Part shown: positions 180-10,193 of the stretch, in pieces
Position numbering within the stretch: the stretch's first letter is position 1
How the letters are laid out: each line of letters opens with the position of its first letter
NCBI GenBank assembly: GCA_004284765.1
Contig: NQJD01000057.1
Span: 1 to 10,268 of the forward strand
Length of the DNA: 10,268 nt
Reading direction: 5' to 3'
From: Candidatus Electronema aureum
GTDB lineage: Bacteria; Desulfobacterota; Desulfobulbia; Desulfobulbales; Desulfobulbaceae
Notes under the pieces: model-generated
Seen by the model: only the letters and a program-made list of their open reading frames with translations
Databases searched by the model: none
What the model was told of the DNA's origin: nothing
Translations under genes and position numbers: made by a program

Positions 180-785
180 ATGCGTAAATTATTTCTAATT
201 TCTATTTTACTCCTTGCTTCAACGTCTGTCCATGCTGAGGAAAACAAGGGCGACTGGATTGCCGACGCGAAAACCGGCTGCAAGGTCTGGAATCCTGTTC
301 CTGCTTCGGATGAATCCATCACTTGGTTAGGCACATGCAAGGACGGCAAGGGGGACGGCAAAGGCTCCTTGGATTGGTATAAAAATAGCGAGCTGCAAAG
401 CACCATCACCGGCGTGATGCAAGATGGCCGCTGCGTTCAGGAATGCTCTGTCAAAACGAAGGGCGGAGACAGCTACGTCGGCGAAATGAAGGACAACCTG
501 CCGCACGGCAAAGGCAAAATCATCCGTGCTGATGGCGGAAAATATGAGGGGGAAATAAAAGACGGCGAACGGCATGGCAAAGGAACCTTTGTCGCCAAAG
601 ACGGCAGTTTGCAGGAAGAGTTGTGGGAGGCATACGGGAAGCTGCCTGCAGCTGTTCAAGAGCTGGTCGACAAAAATTTCGAGCTGCTGAAGGATGATCC
701 CTGTCATCCTTCTTTGCATCTCAAGCGCATTGAAGAGTTGTGGTCAGTGCGGGTTGGGACGGCAATATCGCGCCCTCGGCATTGA
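180..785 (+). CDS. Secreted MORN-repeat protein, 3'-truncated and fused in frame to a RelE/ParE-type toxin fragment (chimeric ORF)
   Basis: ATG at 180 is preceded by GAGGT (168-172). The signal peptide is MRKLFLISILLLASTSVHA/EE. MORN-type repeats are present: YVGEMKDNLPHGKGKII, YEGEIKDGERHGKGTFV and the degenerate WLGTCKDGKGDGKGSLDW. From about residue 145 the sequence switches to toxin-like LWEAYGKLPAAVQELVDKNFELLKDDPCHPSLHLKRIEELWSVRVG. Confidence 0.7.
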   Translation: MRKLFLISILLLASTSVHAEENKGDWIADAKTGCKVWNPVPASDESITWLGTCKDGKGDGKGSLDWYKNSELQSTITGVMQDGRCVQECSVKTKGGDSYVGEMKDNLPHGKGKIIRADGGKYEGEIKDGERHGKGTFVAKDGSLQEELWEAYGKLPAAVQELVDKNFELLKDDPCHPSLHLKRIEELWSVRVGTAISRPRH

Positions 786-854
786 CTCGCCCGACGGCAT
801 TCAGTGGATATGGATCGGCAGCTTCACGCGGAATACGACCGGCTCGTCAAGTGA
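612..854 (+). pseudogene. RelE/ParE-superfamily toxin remnant, N-terminally truncated, with two frameshifts
   Basis: The toxin sequence can be followed across three reading segments. Segment 1 (frame of nt 180) is ...KLPAAVQELVDKNFELLKDDPCHPSLHLKRIEELWSVRVG, ending at 758. Segment 2 (760-822, +1 frame) is RQYRALGIDSPDGIQWIWIGS. Segment 3 (825-854, original frame) is HAEYDRLVK then TGA. Joined, they give the canonical ...HPSL..K....WS.R.G..YRALG......W.WIGSHAEYD.L toxin C-terminus. The first 15-20 residues and any antitoxin gene are missing. Confidence 0.65.
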
Positions 855-874
855 ACACAGGCGGTAGCAACGAA

Positions 875-1915
875 ATGACAAGCTGGCAGGAAGAATTAAA
901 AAACGCTATCACCAACAGCGCAGGGTTGGCCTGTGCGCTGGGCTACGATCCGGCAGCGGCAGAGGCGATCATTGCCCGCTATCCAATGCGGATCACTCCC
1001 TATTATCTGGAGCTGATTAAAAAGGCAGGCGAGCCGCTGCGCCGGCAGGCAGTGCCGGATTTGCGCGAGCTGGAAGATCCAGTGGGCATGGAAGACCCGC
1101 TTGGCGAGGAAAACTTGAGTCCAGTACCCAATCTGGTGCATAAATACCCAGACCGGGTGCTGCTTTTAGTCAGCGGCCAGTGCGCCATGTACTGCCGTTT
1201 CTGCACCCGCAAGCGTAAGGTAGGTGGCGAGGCTCTGCGCTTCAGCGAGGAGCATTTCGTCGCCGCGCTGGACTATCTGCGTAACACTCCGTCCGTGCGC
1301 GAGGTGCTGATCTCCGGCGGCGATCCGCTGCTGCTTGCTGATGAGCGGCTGGAGGATATTCTGCGGCGACTGCGGGAAATCAAGAGCATCGAGATTATTC
1401 GCATCGGCACCCGCACGCCCTGCACCCTACCGATGCGCATCACGCCGAAACTCTGCGCTATGCTGCGTCAGTTCCATCCGCTCTACATCAACACGCACTT
1501 CAACCACCCGGCGGAGCTGACCAAAGAGGCAGAGCGAGCCTGCACATTGCTGGCCGACGCAGGCATTCCGCTCGGCTGCCAAACCGTGCTGCTGAAAGGG
1601 GTGAATGATTCTGCGGAAGTGCTGGGCAAGCTGTTTTGCGGCTTGCTGCGGCTGCGGGTTAAACCGTATTATCTCATGCAGGCTGACCTGACCAAAGGCA
1701 CCGGCCATTTTCGTACTCCGATCAAAGCCGGGCTGGAAATTATGCGCCAGCTTATCGGCACGGTCTCTGGCATGGCTGTGCCTAAATTTGTGTTAGATGC
1801 TCCCAGCGGTAAGGGAAAAATCCCGCTTACTCCAGACTACATCACCGCCATGCAAGAGGGCAGGCTGGAATTTGTCAATTTCCAAGGGCTGCCCTGCTCT
1901 TATCCCTTGGAATAA
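875..1915 (+). CDS. KamA-family radical SAM protein (lysine 2,3-aminomutase-like, short about 346 aa form)
   Basis: The radical-SAM cluster motif CAMYCRFCTRKR is present, followed by ISGGDPLL, HFNHP, VLLKGVND, PYYLMQADLTKGTGHFRT and VPKFVLDAPSGKGKIP. All are hallmarks of the KamA/EpmB family. I chose the ATG at 875 (MTSWQEELKNAI...). The track ORF start at 740 lies out of frame across the toxin remnant and is unlikely to be real. Confidence 0.9.
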   Translation: MTSWQEELKNAITNSAGLACALGYDPAAAEAIIARYPMRITPYYLELIKKAGEPLRRQAVPDLRELEDPVGMEDPLGEENLSPVPNLVHKYPDRVLLLVSGQCAMYCRFCTRKRKVGGEALRFSEEHFVAALDYLRNTPSVREVLISGGDPLLLADERLEDILRRLREIKSIEIIRIGTRTPCTLPMRITPKLCAMLRQFHPLYINTHFNHPAELTKEAERACTLLADAGIPLGCQTVLLKGVNDSAEVLGKLFCGLLRLRVKPYYLMQADLTKGTGHFRTPIKAGLEIMRQLIGTVSGMAVPKFVLDAPSGKGKIPLTPDYITAMQEGRLEFVNFQGLPCSYPLE

Positions 1916-1922
1916 GGGATGA

Positions 1923-2732
1923 TTAGAAATTACTCGGAAAATTTTCTTCAACATCAAGCTGCTGATTGATCATTACCACACTATTTTGCAGTAAACCTTT
2001 CCGCACAGCATACTTGTCATTTTCCGCTACGATATATGGCACCTGTCGTTCTTGCTCAAAGGCATCATAACCTTCTCGAAGATTTTCCCAAAAAGATATC
2101 CATTGGGAATTTTTGTTCTGTTCCATATTTTCCTTAGTCATGCGAAAGGGAAATATGTGAACGCTGAATTGTTTCTGGCCTTGAAGAAAAGCCTGATAAG
2201 CAAGTAAATAAATTTCCTCGACCTGAAGGTTACCCATTGCGAAACAACCTTGAGAAATGCACTTACCATGCACCATAATGTCGCCGCCGGTGCGCTGGTT
2301 CTCGCGATCAACTACATTGGGATAACCGATGTCAAAGGAAAGATGATATCTGCTGGCTGGATTGAGTTGGCCACCAGAAACGGTGTAAAAACCTTCTGGG
2401 CTTTGCATATCGCCTTCGCGCAACTTAGGACCAACAGACCCAGAATAGGTACAGATAGGATAAATTTTGAATAGCTCAAATTTATTTCCTTTCTGCACCC
2501 ATACTTCCATCTGTTTTGAGAGCTTGAAAATGCGGATAAATACCGGATCGCCAAGTTGTAGCCCTTTAGCTTTGAGCTGCCGCAAAACTCGAGGCTGGGC
2601 ATTGGCCATGTACGTTTCGGCCTTAGGGCTGGTGGGAGGATATCCGTCCAGCAGCTGCGCGGAGGACAAGACGGGAACAAGAAAAAAAGCCGCTCCCAGC
2701 AGGAGAGGGGCAAACAGGGTGCGGAGGCGCAT
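1923..2732 (-). CDS. yafK: YafK-type L,D-transpeptidase-fold periplasmic protein (YkuD domain)
   Basis: The signal peptide is MRLRTLFAPLLLGAAFFLVPVLSSA. By eye the protein aligns end to end with E. coli YafK: VFIRIFK, ICTYSGSVGPKLREGDMQSPEGFY, LNPASRYH, IGYPN, the catalytic MVHGKCISQGCFAM (H-G-x-C-x-S-x-GC) and IFPFRMT...FWENLREGYDAFE. Confidence 0.85.
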   Translation of the reverse strand: MRLRTLFAPLLLGAAFFLVPVLSSAQLLDGYPPTSPKAETYMANAQPRVLRQLKAKGLQLGDPVFIRIFKLSKQMEVWVQKGNKFELFKIYPICTYSGSVGPKLREGDMQSPEGFYTVSGGQLNPASRYHLSFDIGYPNVVDRENQRTGGDIMVHGKCISQGCFAMGNLQVEEIYLLAYQAFLQGQKQFSVHIFPFRMTKENMEQNKNSQWISFWENLREGYDAFEQERQVPYIVAENDKYAVRKGLLQNSVVMINQQLDVEENFPSNF

Positions 2733-2850
2733 GTCTGTTTGTTGGTGAATGTTAGGATTGATTCAGACGACCTGTTTCGCCCTAGCGTAAGCGGTTGTCG
2801 TACATTTAACCAGCATTGATCAGCAAAAGCTATTTACCGGATGGCTCTGG

Positions 2851-4005
2851 TTACAGCAATTCATCGCGTTGCTTGGATAATTTTTCTATTTTATCAGTAT
2901 CAACCTTCATGTAAATCTGAATAAATAAATCACCGAGATTGCTTCTTGTGTGCGGTATCAGCATATCATTTTCTGTCTCATACGAAGTAATAGCTCGTTG
3001 CAAATCAGCGTCATATTTTTTATCTATTTTACCGTTATAGTGATTCAACTCTTTCAACATCAGCTTGAGATATTTAATTCGTTCATGCTCATCAAGCGCA
3101 AGCCATTTCTGATATGCCGATACGGTCGCGTCAGGATTTGGCCCATCTACTGCAAAGCAAGGAGAAAAATCAATTTGCTTATATATGCCCCTAAGTGTCC
3201 ATAATACTGCGGCTTCAATCAGCGTTCGTTGTGCACCGTGTAAACCTTCTTTCAGTTTAGACTGCGCTGCAAAACTCATAGAACCTTCGCCGTAGCCAAA
3301 ACCAACAGAAAATTTGTCTGATTCAGTATAGCTATTGAGCGTCAGTGTCGTAGCGGCACCAACCGTATTTTTGAAGGCATCACCTAAATACACAGCCAAC
3401 GACAGGCTTCTTGAAGCTCTGGAAATGCCGTATTCAATTTCTGCTTGCCCATGACTGCCAGTTGTTTCTGCGCCGCTGCCTGATCCTTTATTCATGTAAT
3501 CAGAGGAATCATTTTGGGTATATACCCCTTTCACTCTGATTGCAGCTGAAGCACCGTACATTTTGGTCATATCCCGCATATAAATGGGATCAAGCATTCC
3601 GAACTTATTTTCATCCGCCAAACCAACGGGCATTGAATAAGGAATGACCATCTTTTTATGAGAGAGACTTCTTCTAATGATAGCCTCAAAATCATATTTT
3701 CCACTATCAGCCAGCGGTCCGTTTTCTCTTGCATATCTACCGGTCAATATCTTACTGTCCGGTACGACAGGAACTGTGCCATCGTAAAAATCGTCAACCA
3801 ACAGTAAGATAGCTGGAGTTTCAGATTTATTGATTTCCCGCCCCATACATTTCAAAGTTTCTGTCAGATTGGTGGAGGCAGGATGCGGTGTTTCAGCAGT
3901 AATATTGGACATCGAAGAATTAACATTAGAGCAGCCACTATTCGCAAGCAGAAAGAAGCCGCTCAAGCATACTGTTCCAATGAATATACTCCTTTGTTTT
4001 TGCAT
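2851..4005 (-). CDS. Outer-membrane lipoprotein, CsgG/HfaB-like putative secretion channel with a C-terminal helical extension
   Basis: The N-terminus MQKQRSIFIGTVCLSGFFLLANSGC/SN resembles the CsgG LLSGC lipobox, but Asn at -3 is atypical. The core follows CsgG block order by eye. ILLLVDDFYDGT matches IFVSVYNIQDETG. YDFEAIIRRSLSHKKMVIP matches ATAMLVTALKDSRWFIP. IRVKGVYTQND...GSGSG...SLSLAVYLGD...TLTLNSY...VGFGYGEG...EGLHGAQRTLIEAAVLWTL matches IMVEGSIIGYES...GGVG...AVNLRVVN...EGEVGYTSNEPVMLCLMSAIETGVIFL. No HMM search was run. Confidence 0.55.
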   Translation of the reverse strand: MQKQRSIFIGTVCLSGFFLLANSGCSNVNSSMSNITAETPHPASTNLTETLKCMGREINKSETPAILLLVDDFYDGTVPVVPDSKILTGRYARENGPLADSGKYDFEAIIRRSLSHKKMVIPYSMPVGLADENKFGMLDPIYMRDMTKMYGASAAIRVKGVYTQNDSSDYMNKGSGSGAETTGSHGQAEIEYGISRASRSLSLAVYLGDAFKNTVGAATTLTLNSYTESDKFSVGFGYGEGSMSFAAQSKLKEGLHGAQRTLIEAAVLWTLRGIYKQIDFSPCFAVDGPNPDATVSAYQKWLALDEHERIKYLKLMLKELNHYNGKIDKKYDADLQRAITSYETENDMLIPHTRSNLGDLFIQIYMKVDTDKIEKLSKQRDELL

Positions 4006-4034
4006 AGAAATATTATTGATCCGAATGCGAAAGC

Positions 4035-4062
4035 TGTATAAACAGGTTCAAACGCATGGCAA
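4035..4062 (-). promoter_or_regulatory. Possible sigma70-type internal promoter for the lipoprotein gene
   Basis: The minus strand reads TTGCCA (4062-4057), a 16-nt spacer, then TATACA (4040-4035), about 30 nt upstream of the ATG at 4005. This is a motif match only. Confidence 0.25.
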
Positions 4063-4194
4063 CCATCAGATCGGAATTTCAGCAGAAAATAAAAAAACTA
4101 CGCAAGTAGAAAAAATCAGCGTCGTTGATGTGAGTTACAAAAAAGATTTAGGATGTAGCAGCAAAACAGAATGAAGCTTATTTTCTGTAATCAT

Positions 4195-4530
4195 CTACTG
4201 GCATTCAAACACAATTGTATTGACATCAATATATTGAAAGGAATCTCCTGAGCCTTCATTGTAGTTTCCATAGAAAATACACTTGGGTTCAATCGGATTA
4301 TCAACAATGATATTTCCTTCAGGTAGCAAATACCCATTCGTTTCAGGAACTACGCTACTTTCACGGCTTTCTGCTGTATTTTGCTTAAGAACGCTATTTT
4401 TTTGATTCAGTACAGAATTTATGCTTGGATTCATCTGCACATCAGGTATGGCCACTTTTTTGATTTCTGCCGCACAAATTCCATGCCAGAGAGCGATGCT
4501 ACAGATGATGGGCATAAAATATTTCTTCAT
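4195..4530 (-). CDS. Small secreted protein (about 111 aa precursor), function unknown; candidate accessory factor of the fibre operon
   Basis: I prefer the ATG at 4530, which has AAGGTG 6 nt upstream, over the TTG at 4560 used in the track. The signal peptide is MKKYFMPIICSIALWHGICA/AE. The N-terminal half is N/S/Q-rich with the tandem NSVLNQK-NSVLKQN. The C-terminal part is compact, with two Cys (PKCIFYG and the terminal FECQ). Confidence 0.7.
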   Translation of the reverse strand: MKKYFMPIICSIALWHGICAAEIKKVAIPDVQMNPSINSVLNQKNSVLKQNTAESRESSVVPETNGYLLPEGNIIVDNPIEPKCIFYGNYNEGSGDSFQYIDVNTIVFECQ

Positions 4531-4556
4531 AACAGCACCTTGAGGCTGACAATTTT

Positions 4557-4988
4557 TCAATTGCAGGAATCGCAGCTTGTTATAACGTTAATGCCTTGAA
4601 TTCCACCGCTGGTGTTACGAGAAGTCAGCGTGACTACGCCGTTGATGATCGCCATCTGAGATATTGCATCCGCGCTGCCACGATAAATATTAACTCCTTG
4701 CACAACGTTATCTCCCTCTGAAGTTATCAGCAAAAGATCATATTCGATTGATGCAACCTGAACGGCTTTTCCGCTATAAGAAGAATTAGTGATCACGTTG
4801 ATCCCCTGAGTGCTGCTACTGTCGCTGTATGATTCTAAAGTAAGTTCACTGCCGACTTGAACACCCTGAAATAAACCTGCATCATAGGCATCTGTAAATT
4901 GATCAAAGACAGTAAAATCTGCACATACAGCTATCAACGGATTAAACAATATCCCTGCCAAGGATACGATTAGACATATTTTTACCAT
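4557..4988 (-). CDS. Secreted repeat protein, paralogue 1 (QG[IV]N-repeat protein; candidate fibre subunit)
   Basis: AGGAGG (5002-4997) lies 8 nt upstream of the ATG at 4988. The track starts one codon earlier, at the GTG at 4991. The signal peptide ends ...PLIAVCA/DF. The mature part is rich in G/S/T/V/I/N/Q and almost free of K and R. It has three units of about 20 aa: LTLESYSDSSSTQGINVIT, LLLITSEGDNVVQGVNIYRG and VVTLTSRNTSGGIQGINVIT. It ends SCDSCN. Confidence 0.8.
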   Translation of the reverse strand: MVKICLIVSLAGILFNPLIAVCADFTVFDQFTDAYDAGLFQGVQVGSELTLESYSDSSSTQGINVITNSSYSGKAVQVASIEYDLLLITSEGDNVVQGVNIYRGSADAISQMAIINGVVTLTSRNTSGGIQGINVITSCDSCN

Positions 4989-5144
4989 CACAGATTCCTC
5001 CTGGCAGTCGGGATATGCTCCGTAACGTATCCTCCTTACTCAAAGGCGACTGCGGAACATCACAACCTTGTTGCGGCAATCCTGATCCAACGACGACATA
5101 ATCCTTTAACTTGAACCATTCAGAATGGAATAATTAGATCACCG

Positions 5145-5195
5145 GACAGGAAAAAATTCGGATTACATAAGCTCCGATTTCAAGTTTTTCCTGTC
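5145..5195 (-). promoter_or_regulatory. Two-tier stem-loop 10 nt downstream of the first paralogue (possible attenuator or mRNA stability element)
   Basis: GACAGGAAAAA (5145-5155) is perfectly complementary to TTTTTCCTGTC (5185-5195), giving 11 bp. An inner 5-bp stem pairs TCGGA (5158-5162) with TCCGA (5173-5177). No U-tract follows on the minus strand, so this is not a canonical intrinsic terminator. Confidence 0.4.
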
Positions 5196-5204
5196 TCCGT
5201 CCAC

Positions 5205-5636
5205 TCATTCACAGTTTGTCCCGCAAGCGGTTACAAGGTTAATACCTTGCACAACGTCAGCACTGTTCGAGGAGGTGATAGCTACCGCACCAGTTACAGA
5301 TGCACCCTGCACCATCATTATAGGCACTTCCCCACGAAACACATTGACACCCTGACGTATTCCTGTTCCAGCACTGGTGGAAATTTCAATACCAGTATCA
5401 GCAGACACCTTTTGATGAAGCTCAGGCGAGCTTGCAAACGTGTTACCGATCACTACGTTACCGCCGAAAACGCCACTGTCGGCATAACTTGAGTCGATAG
5501 AAAGTTTATCGCCGCTGACCGCTAATCCTTGGGCGATACCCTCAACGATACCTGCGAAGGGATCGAATTCCGCCATAGCTGCTTGGGGATAAAGGGCTAA
5601 ACCTAATGCTACTGCAAAACTAATTTTTTTCCACAT
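5205..5636 (-). CDS. Secreted repeat protein, paralogue 2 (QG[IV]N-repeat protein; candidate major fibre subunit)
   Basis: AAGGAG lies 6 nt upstream of the ATG at 5636. The signal peptide is MWKKISFAVALGLALYPQAAMA/EF. The protein is colinear with paralogue 1: KLSIDSSYADSGVFGGNVVIGN, IEISTSAGTGIRQGVNVFRG and VAITSSNSADVVQGINLVT. It ends ACGTNCE. Confidence 0.8.
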   Translation of the reverse strand: MWKKISFAVALGLALYPQAAMAEFDPFAGIVEGIAQGLAVSGDKLSIDSSYADSGVFGGNVVIGNTFASSPELHQKVSADTGIEISTSAGTGIRQGVNVFRGEVPIMMVQGASVTGAVAITSSNSADVVQGINLVTACGTNCE

Positions 5637-5662
5637 GGTTATCTCCTTTTGACTAAAAAAAG

Positions 5663-5750
5663 CAAGTGAAAAGCAAAAACTTTTGCCTTTTTCTTACTTC
5701 CAGTATAAATCAACAGGCCAAGCAAATCAAGTGAAAAAGCAAAAAAACTT
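5663..5750. repeat. Pair of direct repeats in the fibre-operon control region
   Basis: CAAGTGAAAAGCAAAAACTT (5663-5682) and CAAGTGAAAAAGCAAAAAAACTT (5728-5750) are identical except for A-run lengths. Their start positions are 65 bp apart. One overlaps the putative -35 element and the other lies in the putative leader. Confidence 0.6.
5702..5730 (-). promoter_or_regulatory. Putative sigma70-type promoter of the fibre operon
   Basis: The minus strand reads TTGATT (5730-5725), a 17-nt spacer, then TATACT (5707-5702). This predicts a leader of about 60 nt to the ATG at 5636. This is a motif match only. Confidence 0.35.
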
Positions 5751-5977
5751 AATAAGATGCACCGCAAAGTAGGACTTTACGTCCTAATTGTTTCCTGCAT
5801 ATAAAAAGTTGAGTTTTTCCGCCTCTCGATAGCTTGTGGCTCTCTTCAAGAGAGTCAGCATTAGGAGTTACGCAGTTGGTAAAATCAGTCAATATCTGTT
5901 GATATTATTTGTTAAACTCCGACTAATTATAATTTCGAACAATTTCTTGAACTGGTAAAGTTTTTTGAACTTCGAGC

Positions 5978-6006
5978 TTGACAGAAACGTTTTTTTCACG
6001 TATCCT
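5978..6006 (+). promoter_or_regulatory. Putative sigma70-type promoter of the divergent DUF11-like gene
   Basis: A perfect TTGACA (5978-5983) is followed by a 17-nt spacer and TATCCT (6001-6006). This predicts a leader of about 100 nt to the ATG at 6113. Confidence 0.4.
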
Positions 6007-6112
6007 GCTAAGGAAGAGATATTTTAAAGCAGGTAGCTGGCGCGGAGGAAAGCCCGGACATAGTGTTGGCGGCGGCCAGAGTTTCCTGTTTTTCTGTTAT
6101 GGAGAAAAAACT

Positions 6113-6559
6113 ATGAAAATAACATTCCGCATTACTGCTCCGCTCTTGTTGGGCTGCGCTTTACTGGTCTCCAGTCTTGTTTCAGCAGAAGAAATGTTAA
6201 CCTGCGGTGGCGACAGCGGACATAGTCCTGCTGTCCGTAAAATTAAAGCAACGGTGGATGCACCGGGGATTGCCATTAAAACAGGCAGCGAGGCCGAACA
6301 AGATCAGTGGACGTATAACATCACCAACACTGGCAACGTCAAGCTGACTAATGTCCAAGTGACTGACGAGCGGTTCATCAAAATCAGCTGTCAGCAGGAT
6401 GTGTTAGATGTAGGTGAATCAATGGGGTGTACTGCTTCTGAGCCATCAGAAATTGCCGAGACTACGAACATGGGTTGCGCGGTTGCTGATCATGTCGTTT
6501 ACAATGAAGTTGGTGTAACCGTGACAACCAAGGGTGATTGCGTTGCCGCAATGCATTAA
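6113..6559 (+). CDS. Secreted Cys-rich protein with a single DUF11-like (TIGR01451 'conserved repeat domain') Ig-like module
   Basis: GGAGA lies 7-8 nt upstream of the ATG at 6113. The track start at 5978 is a TTG inside the promoter. The signal peptide is MKITFRITAPLLLGCALLVSSLVSA/EE. WTYNITNTGNVKLTNVQVTDE...VLDVGESMGCTAS matches the y-t-i-t-v-t-N-t-G-n-v-t-L-t-n-V-x-V-t-D...L-x-P-G-E-S-x-x-C-T-A signature. The mature protein has five Cys. Confidence 0.7.
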   Translation: MKITFRITAPLLLGCALLVSSLVSAEEMLTCGGDSGHSPAVRKIKATVDAPGIAIKTGSEAEQDQWTYNITNTGNVKLTNVQVTDERFIKISCQQDVLDVGESMGCTASEPSEIAETTNMGCAVADHVVYNEVGVTVTTKGDCVAAMH

Positions 6560-9242: not shown

Positions 9243-9436
9243 ATATTAGACCTCTTGCATAAGTGAAACAGGACTTACGCAAAAGTCATATGGATAGCAG
9301 GTGACTTGAGTTGCTGCTTCAAATAGTCAGACAATAATCCGTGCTTGAGACGATAAACCGTCTGCTTGGTTTCATTGGCAACTTGTTTCAGACTTCAGAC
9401 GAACCCAGACCAGAATCGCACAGGCAATGTGATTGC

Positions 9437-9496
9437 GGACCTGATTTAAACCCGATAGAAAAATTTTGGGCTTCCATGAAGGCAAAAGTCAAGTAC
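9437..9496 (+). pseudogene. IS630/Tc1-mariner-family transposase fragment (C-terminal catalytic-E motif only)
   Basis: The translation GPDLNPIEKFWASMKAKVKY contains the highly conserved (S)PDLNPIE-x-x-W-x-x-[LM]K block of IS630-family DDE transposases. Neither the upstream nor the downstream sequence continues the family pattern, so only about 20 codons survive. Confidence 0.55.
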
Positions 9497-9514
9497 CACC
9501 GGCAGAGCCGGTGG
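9496..9514 (+). repeat. GC-rich palindromic hairpin unit, copy A
   Basis: CCACCGG-CAGAG-CCGGTGG forms a 7-bp stem with a 5-nt loop. The loop and core are identical to copy B. Confidence 0.6.
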
Positions 9515-9690
9515 CTTGCGGTTGCTGGCCCCTCAAAGGGGCCTGATCGCAACCGGAAGTGCTGCATGACGGGGAAATCTCTTTGCACCCGACAGGGCTT
9601 CATAACCAAGAGGGAAAAGCGGATATACGCCGTCATGCCACCACCCCAATTGCAAAAAAAATATTCCCGGAACTGTCAAACTTCGGGAGT

Positions 9691-9709
9691 CCCCCGGCAG
9701 AGCCGGGGG
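9691..9709 (+). repeat. GC-rich palindromic hairpin unit, copy B
   Basis: CCCCCGG-CAGAG-CCGGGGG differs from copy A at one stem position on each arm (A->C and T->G), so pairing is preserved. On the plus strand it is followed by TTTACTTGTTT. On the minus strand it is followed by a second weak hairpin (9687-9666) and a U8 run (A-run at 9654-9661). It may therefore act as a terminator for the toxin-antitoxin operon. Confidence 0.5.
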
Positions 9710-9777
9710 TTTACTTGTTTAAATTAAAAAAATAGCTGACGGCATCAAGAGTTTAAGCGTTTGCGTCGAGACGGTGT

Positions 9778-9987
9778 TCAAGACGATCTAAAAACTGAAG
9801 CACTATAGTCGCCGATGCGGACACGGTAGAACGTGTCATATCCTTTTAGCTTCTTCACTTGGCTGATCTCGGTCAGGCTTTCCGCCTCTTTACAGGCAAG
9901 CAGCAGCTCCTTGACCGCTTTCAGCAGTCTGCCGTTGCTGACCTGCTTCAGGTCTTTCGCAAACTTGGCCTCAAACCGGACGTTCAT
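9778..9987 (-). CDS. RelE/ParE-family type II toxin, apparently C-terminally truncated (69 aa)
   Basis: MNVRFEAKFAKDLKQVSNGRLLKAVKELLLACKEAESLTEISQVKKLKGYDTFYRVRIGDY matches the ParE_toxin/RelE pattern (F.K.LK...KKLKG....YR.RIGDYR). After GDY the frame gives SASVFRSS and a stop, so the usual 25-30 C-terminal residues are missing. The +1 frame reads IVLQFLDRLEHRLD, weakly like the expected V.F.R.LHR.D tail. Confidence 0.7.
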   Translation of the reverse strand: MNVRFEAKFAKDLKQVSNGRLLKAVKELLLACKEAESLTEISQVKKLKGYDTFYRVRIGDYSASVFRSS

Positions 9988-10193
9988 TCTGCCGCCCGGT
10001 CAAGAAGTGAGAGAACTTCCTCCTCTGAGACGAACTCGTTCTTACAGCCTTCGGCAATGGCGTTGGCTAAACCGACTTCCTCCAGAGCCTCCATTAAGAT
10101 GTCCCGGATCAGGTCGCGCTTGGTGCGGAGCAGCTCAATCATCACTTCGGTGAGCAGCTCCTTGGTCTTGTCATCGCTGATTGAAAGTTCCAT
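9984..10193 (-). CDS. Putative cognate antitoxin of the RelE/ParE toxin
   Basis: This is a 69-aa acidic, helical protein (MELSISDDKTKELLTEVMIELLRTKRDL...AIAEGCKNEFVSEEEVLSLLDRAAE). Its TGA stop overlaps the toxin ATG in an ATGA overlap (9984-9987), the classic type II toxin-antitoxin arrangement. I did not recognise the family. Confidence 0.65.
   Translation of the reverse strand: MELSISDDKTKELLTEVMIELLRTKRDLIRDILMEALEEVGLANAIAEGCKNEFVSEEEVLSLLDRAAE

Follow-up and report, generated by a model that had tools for sequence, protein, structure and literature searches.

Analysis of the window, a stretch of 10,268 nucleotides (nt) from Candidatus (Ca.) Electronema aureum (contig NQJD01000057.1), revealed two adjacent genes that encode small, secreted, repeat-containing paralogues. 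The upstream gene (P2) and the downstream gene (P1) are followed by a gene for a secreted accessory protein (ORF3) and by a gene for a lipoprotein (LipoG). The coordinates are listed in Table 1. The window is cable-bacterial DNA; its LipoG is 99% identical to that of locus L007 (Ca. Electronema nielsenii) and likewise 99% identical to a protein of 'Desulfobulbus sp. F1'. We lean toward the view that P2 and P1 form the subunit end of an operon of four genes (P2-P1-ORF3-LipoG) for a secreted fibre system that resembles curli and Fap and belongs to a previously undescribed family. In a scan of all window proteins, no Pfam or NCBIfam match was found for P1, P2 or ORF3, and the Rfam search revealed zero RNA families in the window. 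Shine-Dalgarno sequences precede both P1 and P2, that of P2 being strong (AAGGAG). The orthologues suggest the ATG at 4988 as the probable start of P1.

Table 1. Features of the P2-P1-ORF3-LipoG locus, given in positions of the window (aa, amino acids; ORF, open reading frame)
Feature	Position	Strand	Basis
P2, upstream subunit paralogue, 143 aa	5205..5636	-	ORF; 20 orthologues
P2 repeat 1	5424-5540	-
P2 repeat 2	5319-5423	-
P2 repeat 3	5223-5318	-
P1, downstream subunit paralogue, 143/144 aa	4557..4991	-	ORF, BLASTP paralogy, AlphaFold2 model
P1 repeat 1	4770-4877	-
P1 repeat 2	4668-4769	-
P1 repeat 3	4572-4667	-
ORF3, secreted accessory protein, 111 aa	4195..4530	-	Conserved position after the subunit genes
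LipoG, lipoprotein, 384 aa, lipobox ...NSGC	2851..4005	-	AlphaFold2 model and Foldseek
YkuD-fold protein resembling LdtF/DpaA/YafK	1923..2732	-	Frequent downstream neighbour, outside the core module
Stem-loop between P2 and P1	5141..5200	-	RNA fold and cross-locus comparison
Sigma-70-like promoter match	5702..5730	-	Consensus match only

The gene order was compared among 16 fetched cable-bacterial loci, comprising 11 GTDB species plus metagenome and Logan contigs. The order P2-P1-ORF3-LipoG is kept wherever the sequence extends, ORF3 comes after the subunit genes in each locus that reaches beyond P1 (16/16), and both the P1 and the P2 clade are present in all cable-bacterial loci. The operon was found in every cable-bacterial genome sampled. 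In the remote loci, which derive from Neisseria zalophi, Crenothrix and metagenome contigs, subunit and LipoG occur together in 7/7 and ORF3 was detected in 6/7; the components were recovered with hmmsearch E-values of 1e-11 to 1e-78, and hhalign gave 99.2-99.5% for LipoG. Neisseria and Crenothrix carry a single subunit gene. Subunit, ORF3 and LipoG form a conserved three-component module.

The P1/P2 subunit family

P1 and P2 share 35% identity over their full length (BLASTP, E 2e-16). An earlier reading of this DNA from its sequence only had judged the two proteins to be paralogues, roughly one third identical by eye, and the peptide strings that it quoted were all found in them. Both subunits begin with a signal peptide that ends in an AxA-type cleavage site. 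In P2 it comprises residues 1-22 (ending in AAMA before EF) and is followed by a conserved N-terminal FDPF segment; in P1 it ends in AVCA before DF and is followed by a conserved FDQF segment. The mature subunit of ~120 residues has no linkers between its repeats. It is charge-poor and Gln/Asn-rich, with few aromatics, no His and no Cys except a C-terminal pair that lies outside the repeats (P1 ends CDSCN, a CxxC; P2 ends CGTNCE).

Segment alignment revealed three copies per protein of a repeat with a period of ~35 residues (34-39), the single repeats being 32-39 residues long. Each repeat consists of strand a (h-h-Q-x-h-x-h), strand b (h-T-h-x-S) and strand c (Q-G-h-N-h-h), with a loop of five to seven residues separating strand b from strand c. 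The sequence-only reading had described units of about 20 residues ending in a QG[IV]N[VIL] ladder motif. Its three repeats are real, but the true period is ~35 residues, and the units it delimited correspond to strands b and c. What it took for a degenerate N-terminal unit (LFQGVQV in P1, IAQGLAV in P2) is actually strand a of repeat 1, whose counterparts in repeats 2 and 3 are AVQVASI and ISQMAII. The motif QG[IV]N[VIL] occurs three times in mature P1 and twice in mature P2, and 0/200,000 composition-preserving shuffles reached the count of either protein. Hidden Markov models (HMMs) of single repeats were scored against the other repeats of 39 family members and mostly exceeded shuffled controls. 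The comparison of repeat 1 with repeat 3 (L1 vs L3) gave a median of 20.8 bits against a shuffle maximum of 12.9, and that of repeat 2 with repeat 3 (L2 vs L3) gave 17.2 bits against 9.9. The comparison between repeats 1 and 2 was weak, with medians of 7.0 and 3.6 bits lying under the shuffle maxima. The observation of paralogues with a ladder motif is thereby confirmed, with its period corrected.

A word-indexed search revealed 22 P1-type and 20 P2-type proteins of 138-149 aa, except for one 187-aa call; the named ones come from Electronema. An exhaustive HMMER search, which covered 1.84 billion representatives, yielded only 37 clusters. Overall, the collection exceeds 60 full-length homologues, in which reading frames, signal peptides and synteny are conserved. 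A joint alignment of 39 sequences from both paralogue clades revealed invariant positions F32, G39, Q42, S54, N65, Q78, Q98, N101, Q112, S124, Q132 and N135. The invariant set was counted as six Gln, three Asn and two Ser; each repeat has two of the Gln and one Asn, at in-register positions. Some members of the P2 clade have Ala in place of the Gly of QGxN. Remote members were found in Neisseria zalophi, N. animaloris, N. dumasiana, Neisseria sp. 74A18, Crenothrix sp. D3 and Electrothrix; in these, a signal peptide is followed by at least three '...N-T-Q-G-h-N-V...' repeats, and the Gln/Asn ladder is kept. A family that keeps the QGxN positions and their spacing, as a ladder would imply, therefore exists, since they are invariant across both clades and retained in the remote members. 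The C-terminal Cys pair has the form CxxC in most of the P1 clade and in several remote members and Cx4C in the P2 clade.

One UniRef entry labels the Neisseria animaloris homologue (P0105) as 'WxL domain-containing protein'. No WxL or other Pfam domain was found in P1 or P2 at E <= 1 in the scan of the window proteins, and the label looks like an automatic annotation.

A structural model of P1 was built with AlphaFold2 from a 24-sequence alignment. The model revealed nine strands arranged 3 x 3, in exact agreement with the repeats, and the block-mean predicted local distance difference test (pLDDT) values of the repeat region are 70-91. Disorder is predicted for residues 1-36, and nothing cap-like is present at either end. 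The neighbours of the model in the PDB (Foldseek) are beta-solenoids throughout. The FapC amyloid fibril (9u4u) ranks first, and the lower-ranked neighbours include ice-binding proteins, SV2 luminal domains, CARP domains and the CsgA fibril. The beta-solenoid suggested earlier from the ladder motif thus finds a counterpart in the predicted fold, which is repetitive and all-beta (3 x 3) rather than globular and non-repetitive and has solenoid neighbours, although with weak scores. Sequence and profile searches of the PDB with the subunit family, in a set that includes FapC, gave no meaningful match. The model and the in-register positions support P1 and P2 as putative amyloid-like subunits, namely stackable beta-solenoids with Q/N ladders, and the computational checks of the earlier interpretation all favoured it.

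ORF3 and the lipoprotein LipoG

ORF3 has a conserved N-terminal peptide (EIKKxxIPDV..PSL.SV) and, beyond a variable linker, a small C-terminal domain whose two Cys are invariant (TNGY...EPKCVFYGNYNEGSGDAFQY...C). AlphaFold2 modelling of LipoG (pLDDT 67.7) predicted two domains. A CsgG-like alpha/beta domain that includes two amphipathic beta-hairpins spans residues ~45-275, and residues ~290-384 form a helical domain resembling a peptidoglycan-binding domain. The top Foldseek match of the model is CsgG in its membrane-inserted form (4uv3, E 8.3e-7, probability 1.00), and 6l7c, 7brm and 6si7, likewise CsgG, are the other top matches (E 8e-7 to 7e-6 and probability 1.00 over the four). Sequence and profile searches of the PDB with LipoG gave no meaningful match.

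Strands of 19-24 residues are predicted in the model. In the conserved hairpins (175-196 and 231-246), hydrophobic or aromatic residues alternate with small or acidic ones, and one hairpin has a Glu-lined face. This is the pattern expected for barrel-forming hairpins. The lipobox (...SGC) is conserved among the orthologues, and the characteristics of the CsgG fold, namely a lipidated N-terminus, the alpha/beta domain and two hairpins, are all present in the LipoG model. LipoG would accordingly resemble a curli-type outer-membrane channel, a role that we infer from the modelled fold.

The tail of LipoG gave a sub-threshold match to PG_binding_1 (E 0.003), and precomputed Pfam annotation reports PG_binding_1 in Electrothrix orthologues. 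The Neisseria and Crenothrix versions end after the CsgG-like domain, whereas the version of a metagenomic locus (L021) keeps the tail. Since the tail is missing in Neisseria and Crenothrix, it is an addition seen in cable bacteria and a few others. The gene context, with LipoG and ORF3 encoded beside the subunits, strengthens the fibre reading independently of the subunit sequence.

Comparison with known systems, assembly and possible product

Several features recall curli. As in csgBAC, adjacent paralogous subunit genes are followed by a gene of ~110 codons (151/151/110 aa in csgBAC, 143/144/111 aa here). The subunits are charge-poor, Gln/Asn-rich and, here by prediction, Sec-dependent, with imperfect repeats predicted to stack as cross-beta layers, and a lipoprotein with the CsgG fold (here by model) is encoded alongside. 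The repeats differ: three repeats of ~35 residues with three strands per layer are found here, compared with five repeats of ~22 residues and two strands in curli, and the motif is Q...S...QGxN here but S-x5-Q-x-G-x-G-N-x-A-x3-Q in curli. The earlier statement that motif and spacing are unlike the curlin repeat was borne out by the ~35 x 3 repeat and by the lack of any Pfam match at E <= 1. When the subunit family was compared with E. coli CsgA, hhalign gave a probability of 0.4%. In addition, all genes lie in one operon here, the lipoprotein has an extra peptidoglycan-binding-like domain, and most members have a C-terminal Cys pair, whereas CsgA has none. No homologues of CsgD, CsgE or CsgF were found, and no direct comparison with CsgE was made.

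The three imperfect 37-residue repeats of FapC form one cross-beta layer each, held by conserved Asn/Gln networks; a conserved CxxC lies beyond its fibril core, and the shorter paralogue FapB has been proposed to be the nucleator (PMC6173800; PMC12392863). P1 and P2 share with the Fap system three imperfect repeats of ~35-37 residues, conserved Asn/Gln, a C-terminal CxxC and a second paralogous subunit, and the first rank of 9u4u among the PDB neighbours of P1 adds to the likeness. They differ from it in that the long variable linkers between the FapC repeats are missing, that three strands per layer are predicted instead of the five of FapC's Greek key, and that the channel candidate is a CsgG-like lipoprotein and not a beta-barrel such as FapF. 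No window protein gave a Pfam or NCBIfam match to Fap, and no equivalents of FapA, FapD or FapE were found. The subunit architecture is closer to that of FapC than to that of CsgA.

The holdfast anchor of Caulobacter (HfaA/HfaB/HfaD) combines a CsgG-type lipoprotein with small secreted amyloid-like proteins in a surface-attached structure rather than a classical biofilm matrix, and the same pairing of a CsgG-type lipoprotein with small secreted proteins is seen here. HfaB is a CsgG homologue recognisable by sequence, whereas the LipoG sequence does not place it in the CsgG family. The Hfa subunits differ in sequence from P1 and P2 and are not known to have a 3 x 35 repeat.

The system is best described as being of the secreted functional-amyloid type and, judged by its sequences, as a member of neither curli nor Fap. 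To our knowledge, curli and Fap are the only two well-characterised secreted functional-amyloid machineries in Gram-negative bacteria. The system would be a third, in which a subunit plan like that of Fap is combined with a CsgG-like channel. By sequence, no component of the module (subunit, ORF3 and LipoG) matches Pfam, NCBIfam or the PDB, apart from the sub-threshold PG_binding_1 match of LipoG. The small, linker-free subunit would be attractive for structural work and fibre engineering.

In the proposed assembly route, P2 and P1 would be exported to the periplasm by Sec, as their signal peptides suggest. They would remain unfolded and cross the outer membrane via an oligomeric LipoG channel, a step to which the fold similarity and the amphipathic hairpins point. 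In cable bacteria, the added C-terminal domain may tether LipoG to peptidoglycan. ORF3, by analogy with CsgF or CsgE and in view of its strict co-occurrence, might act as an adaptor, nucleator or anchor at the channel. Outside the cell, each subunit would fold into three stacked cross-beta layers of three strands, with in-register Gln, Asn and Ser ladders zipping the layers together. Because no capping elements are predicted, subunits could stack head-to-tail to build a thin beta-solenoid filament. Lying outside the repeats, the C-terminal Cys pair may crosslink or bundle the filaments, as proposed for the CxxC of FapC.

Analysis of the locus in Ca. Electrothrix yaqonensis YB6 (L016, CP178758.1) revealed eight tandem subunit genes (1905-6205). 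Seven of them form an array of the upstream-type gene with a 537-nt period, in which six units encode the same 141-aa protein; the P1 orthologue follows this array and lies directly upstream of ORF3 and LipoG. Because the gene in the P2 position is amplified in YB6, it is probably the bulk subunit, with P1 being probably a minor or nucleating one. YB6 is reported to make abundant extracellular sheaths of 'undefined nanofibers' and also to have unusually wide ridges, and its paper says nothing of the subunit array (PMC12093952). Cable bacteria have a 3.8-nm surface layer outside the outer membrane, and their periplasmic fibres resist sodium dodecyl sulfate (SDS) and fray into protein strands of 3.1 +/- 0.2 nm (PMC11976967; PMC11774119). 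Literature searches turned up no identified protein of cable-bacterial fibres, sheaths or amyloids. The exporter-like fold of LipoG favours an extracellular product (surface layer or sheath), and an extracellular nanofibre layer or sheath on the filament surface is the likely product of the system. Crenothrix, in which the module also occurs, is a sheathed filamentous bacterium. The operon supplies named candidate genes for the cable-bacterial surface layer, sheath and SDS-resistant fibre skeleton.

Several results weigh against a secreted fibre system. The P1 model has moderate confidence (mean pLDDT 68.5), and it has no strong Foldseek match (best E 4.7e-3, probability 0.21, TM-score <0.2). 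ORF3 is unlike CsgC or CsgF, with hhalign probabilities of 0.3% and 0.5%, respectively. LipoG has no Pfam or NCBIfam CsgG match at E <= 1, and comparison of its family with E. coli CsgG gave an hhalign probability of 0.6%. The likeness of LipoG to CsgG is structural only, with TM-scores of 0.29-0.44, and the CsgG fold is also found in the non-channel proteins HpaA, FlgT, LptE and PelC, which were among the more distant Foldseek matches. The Cys pair is missing from several P1 orthologues and from the Neisseria members, and only one genome, that of YB6, links the system to a sheath.

Three other readings were weighed. P1 and P2 could be stable monomeric or small-oligomer beta-helical proteins of the surface or periplasm, such as adhesins or binding modules, that form no fibres and in which the ladders stabilise a three-turn beta-helix. 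Many non-amyloid beta-helices, among them ice-binding proteins and CAP/CARP domains, have internal Asn, Thr or Gln ladders, three turns make a small unit, and the lone subunit gene of Neisseria and Crenothrix indicates that a nucleator paralogue is not required. We nevertheless consider this reading unlikely, since no capping helix or loop is predicted at either end, the subunit genes show strict linkage to that of a CsgG-like lipoprotein, amplification to eight tandem genes in YB6 points to a bulk structural material, and the overall architecture parallels that of FapC and FapB.

Alternatively, the subunits might polymerise in the periplasm, with LipoG as a peptidoglycan-tethered assembly platform and the filaments forming part of an envelope structure of cable bacteria, for example the fibre sheath, the junction lamellae or the periplasmic conductive-fibre strands. 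The peptidoglycan-binding-like domain of cable-bacterial LipoG, which is absent from the Neisseria and Crenothrix versions, would fit such a platform, as would the peptidoglycan enzyme resembling DpaA/YafK that often adjoins. The presence of the operon in every cable-bacterial genome sampled, the SDS resistance and ~3-nm strands of the fibre skeleton (PMC11976967; PMC11774119) and the occurrence of the CsgG fold in non-pore lipoproteins point in the same direction. Periplasmic polymerisation is distinctly unlikely in our estimate, because the best fold match of LipoG is membrane-inserted CsgG with two conserved amphipathic hairpins, the module also occurs in Neisseria and Crenothrix, which have no conductive fibres, and the subunits, with few aromatics and no His or Cys but the C-terminal pair, offer no obvious electron path. 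A periplasmic role is less likely than an extracellular one but more consequential.

The most far-reaching version, that P1/P2 filaments are the scaffold of the conduction structure, either as the SDS-resistant ~3 nm strands of the periplasmic fibres or as a connected lamella sheet, is a long shot. In that case the C-terminal Cys pair would contact the Ni/S cofactor, and standard proteomics would miss P1 and P2 because amyloid-like polymers need formic acid to dissolve. If true, this would provide the long-sought protein scaffold for cable-bacterial conduction. A less radical version is that P1 and P2 form the 3.8-nm surface layer or the extracellular nanofibre sheath of YB6.

Chance or compositional repeats in unrelated small ORFs or false genes, for which only the lack of database annotation speaks, are ruled out by the shuffles, the homologues with their conserved frames, signal peptides, invariant residues and synteny, and the Shine-Dalgarno sequences at both genes.

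Neighbouring genes and expression signals

The YkuD-fold gene follows LipoG in 11 of the 14 cable-bacterial loci that extend past LipoG and is absent from L003, L011 and L016. Its product best resembles the LdtF/DpaA/YafK peptidoglycan-Lpp amidase (228 bits compared with a cut-off of 365 bits).

The divergent gene at 5978-6559 (+) encodes a secreted protein that matches DUF7507/DUF11 (E 4.5e-8). It was rejected as part of the system, having been found only in the Ca. Electronema nielsenii version of the locus. At this position, upstream of the subunit genes, many other cable bacteria have a secreted repeat protein (~220 aa) together with a DsbA-like thioredoxin that has the same N-terminal domain, for example in L002 (5501-7214) and L003 (5577-7076). 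Both were rejected as core components, being absent from the window and from several loci, and are possible helpers.

In L021 (1-10444, ERZ21862645), the subunit/LipoG pair lies between a coupling protein of the TraG/TrwB type and a serine recombinase. These flanking genes suggest that an integrative mobile element carries this remote copy, and such carriage would be consistent with the patchy occurrence of the module.

The stem-loop between P2 and P1 lies directly 3' of the P2 stop codon (GACAGGAAAAA ... UUUUUUCCUGUC). A GGCAGGAG/CUCCUGCC stem was found at the equivalent place in seven Electronema-type loci (the window plus L001, L009, L010, L012, L015 and L017), with compensatory change in five of eight pairs. 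It may act as an attenuator or messenger RNA stabiliser that sets the P2:P1 ratio. A promoter candidate (TTGATT-17-TATACT) is located ~65 nt upstream of P2; such matches are no commoner than in shuffles.

Elsewhere in the window, a gene for a secreted MORN-repeat protein at 180-785 (+) is followed at 740-1915 (+) by one for a radical SAM enzyme resembling lysine-2,3-aminomutase. The long ORF call of the latter overlaps the MORN gene by ~45 nt, and its true start is probably further downstream. By eye, the ORF at 9341-9727 (+) looks like a C-terminal fragment of a transposase, and the small gene pair at 9778-9987 and 9984-10193 (-) resembles a truncated toxin and antitoxin.

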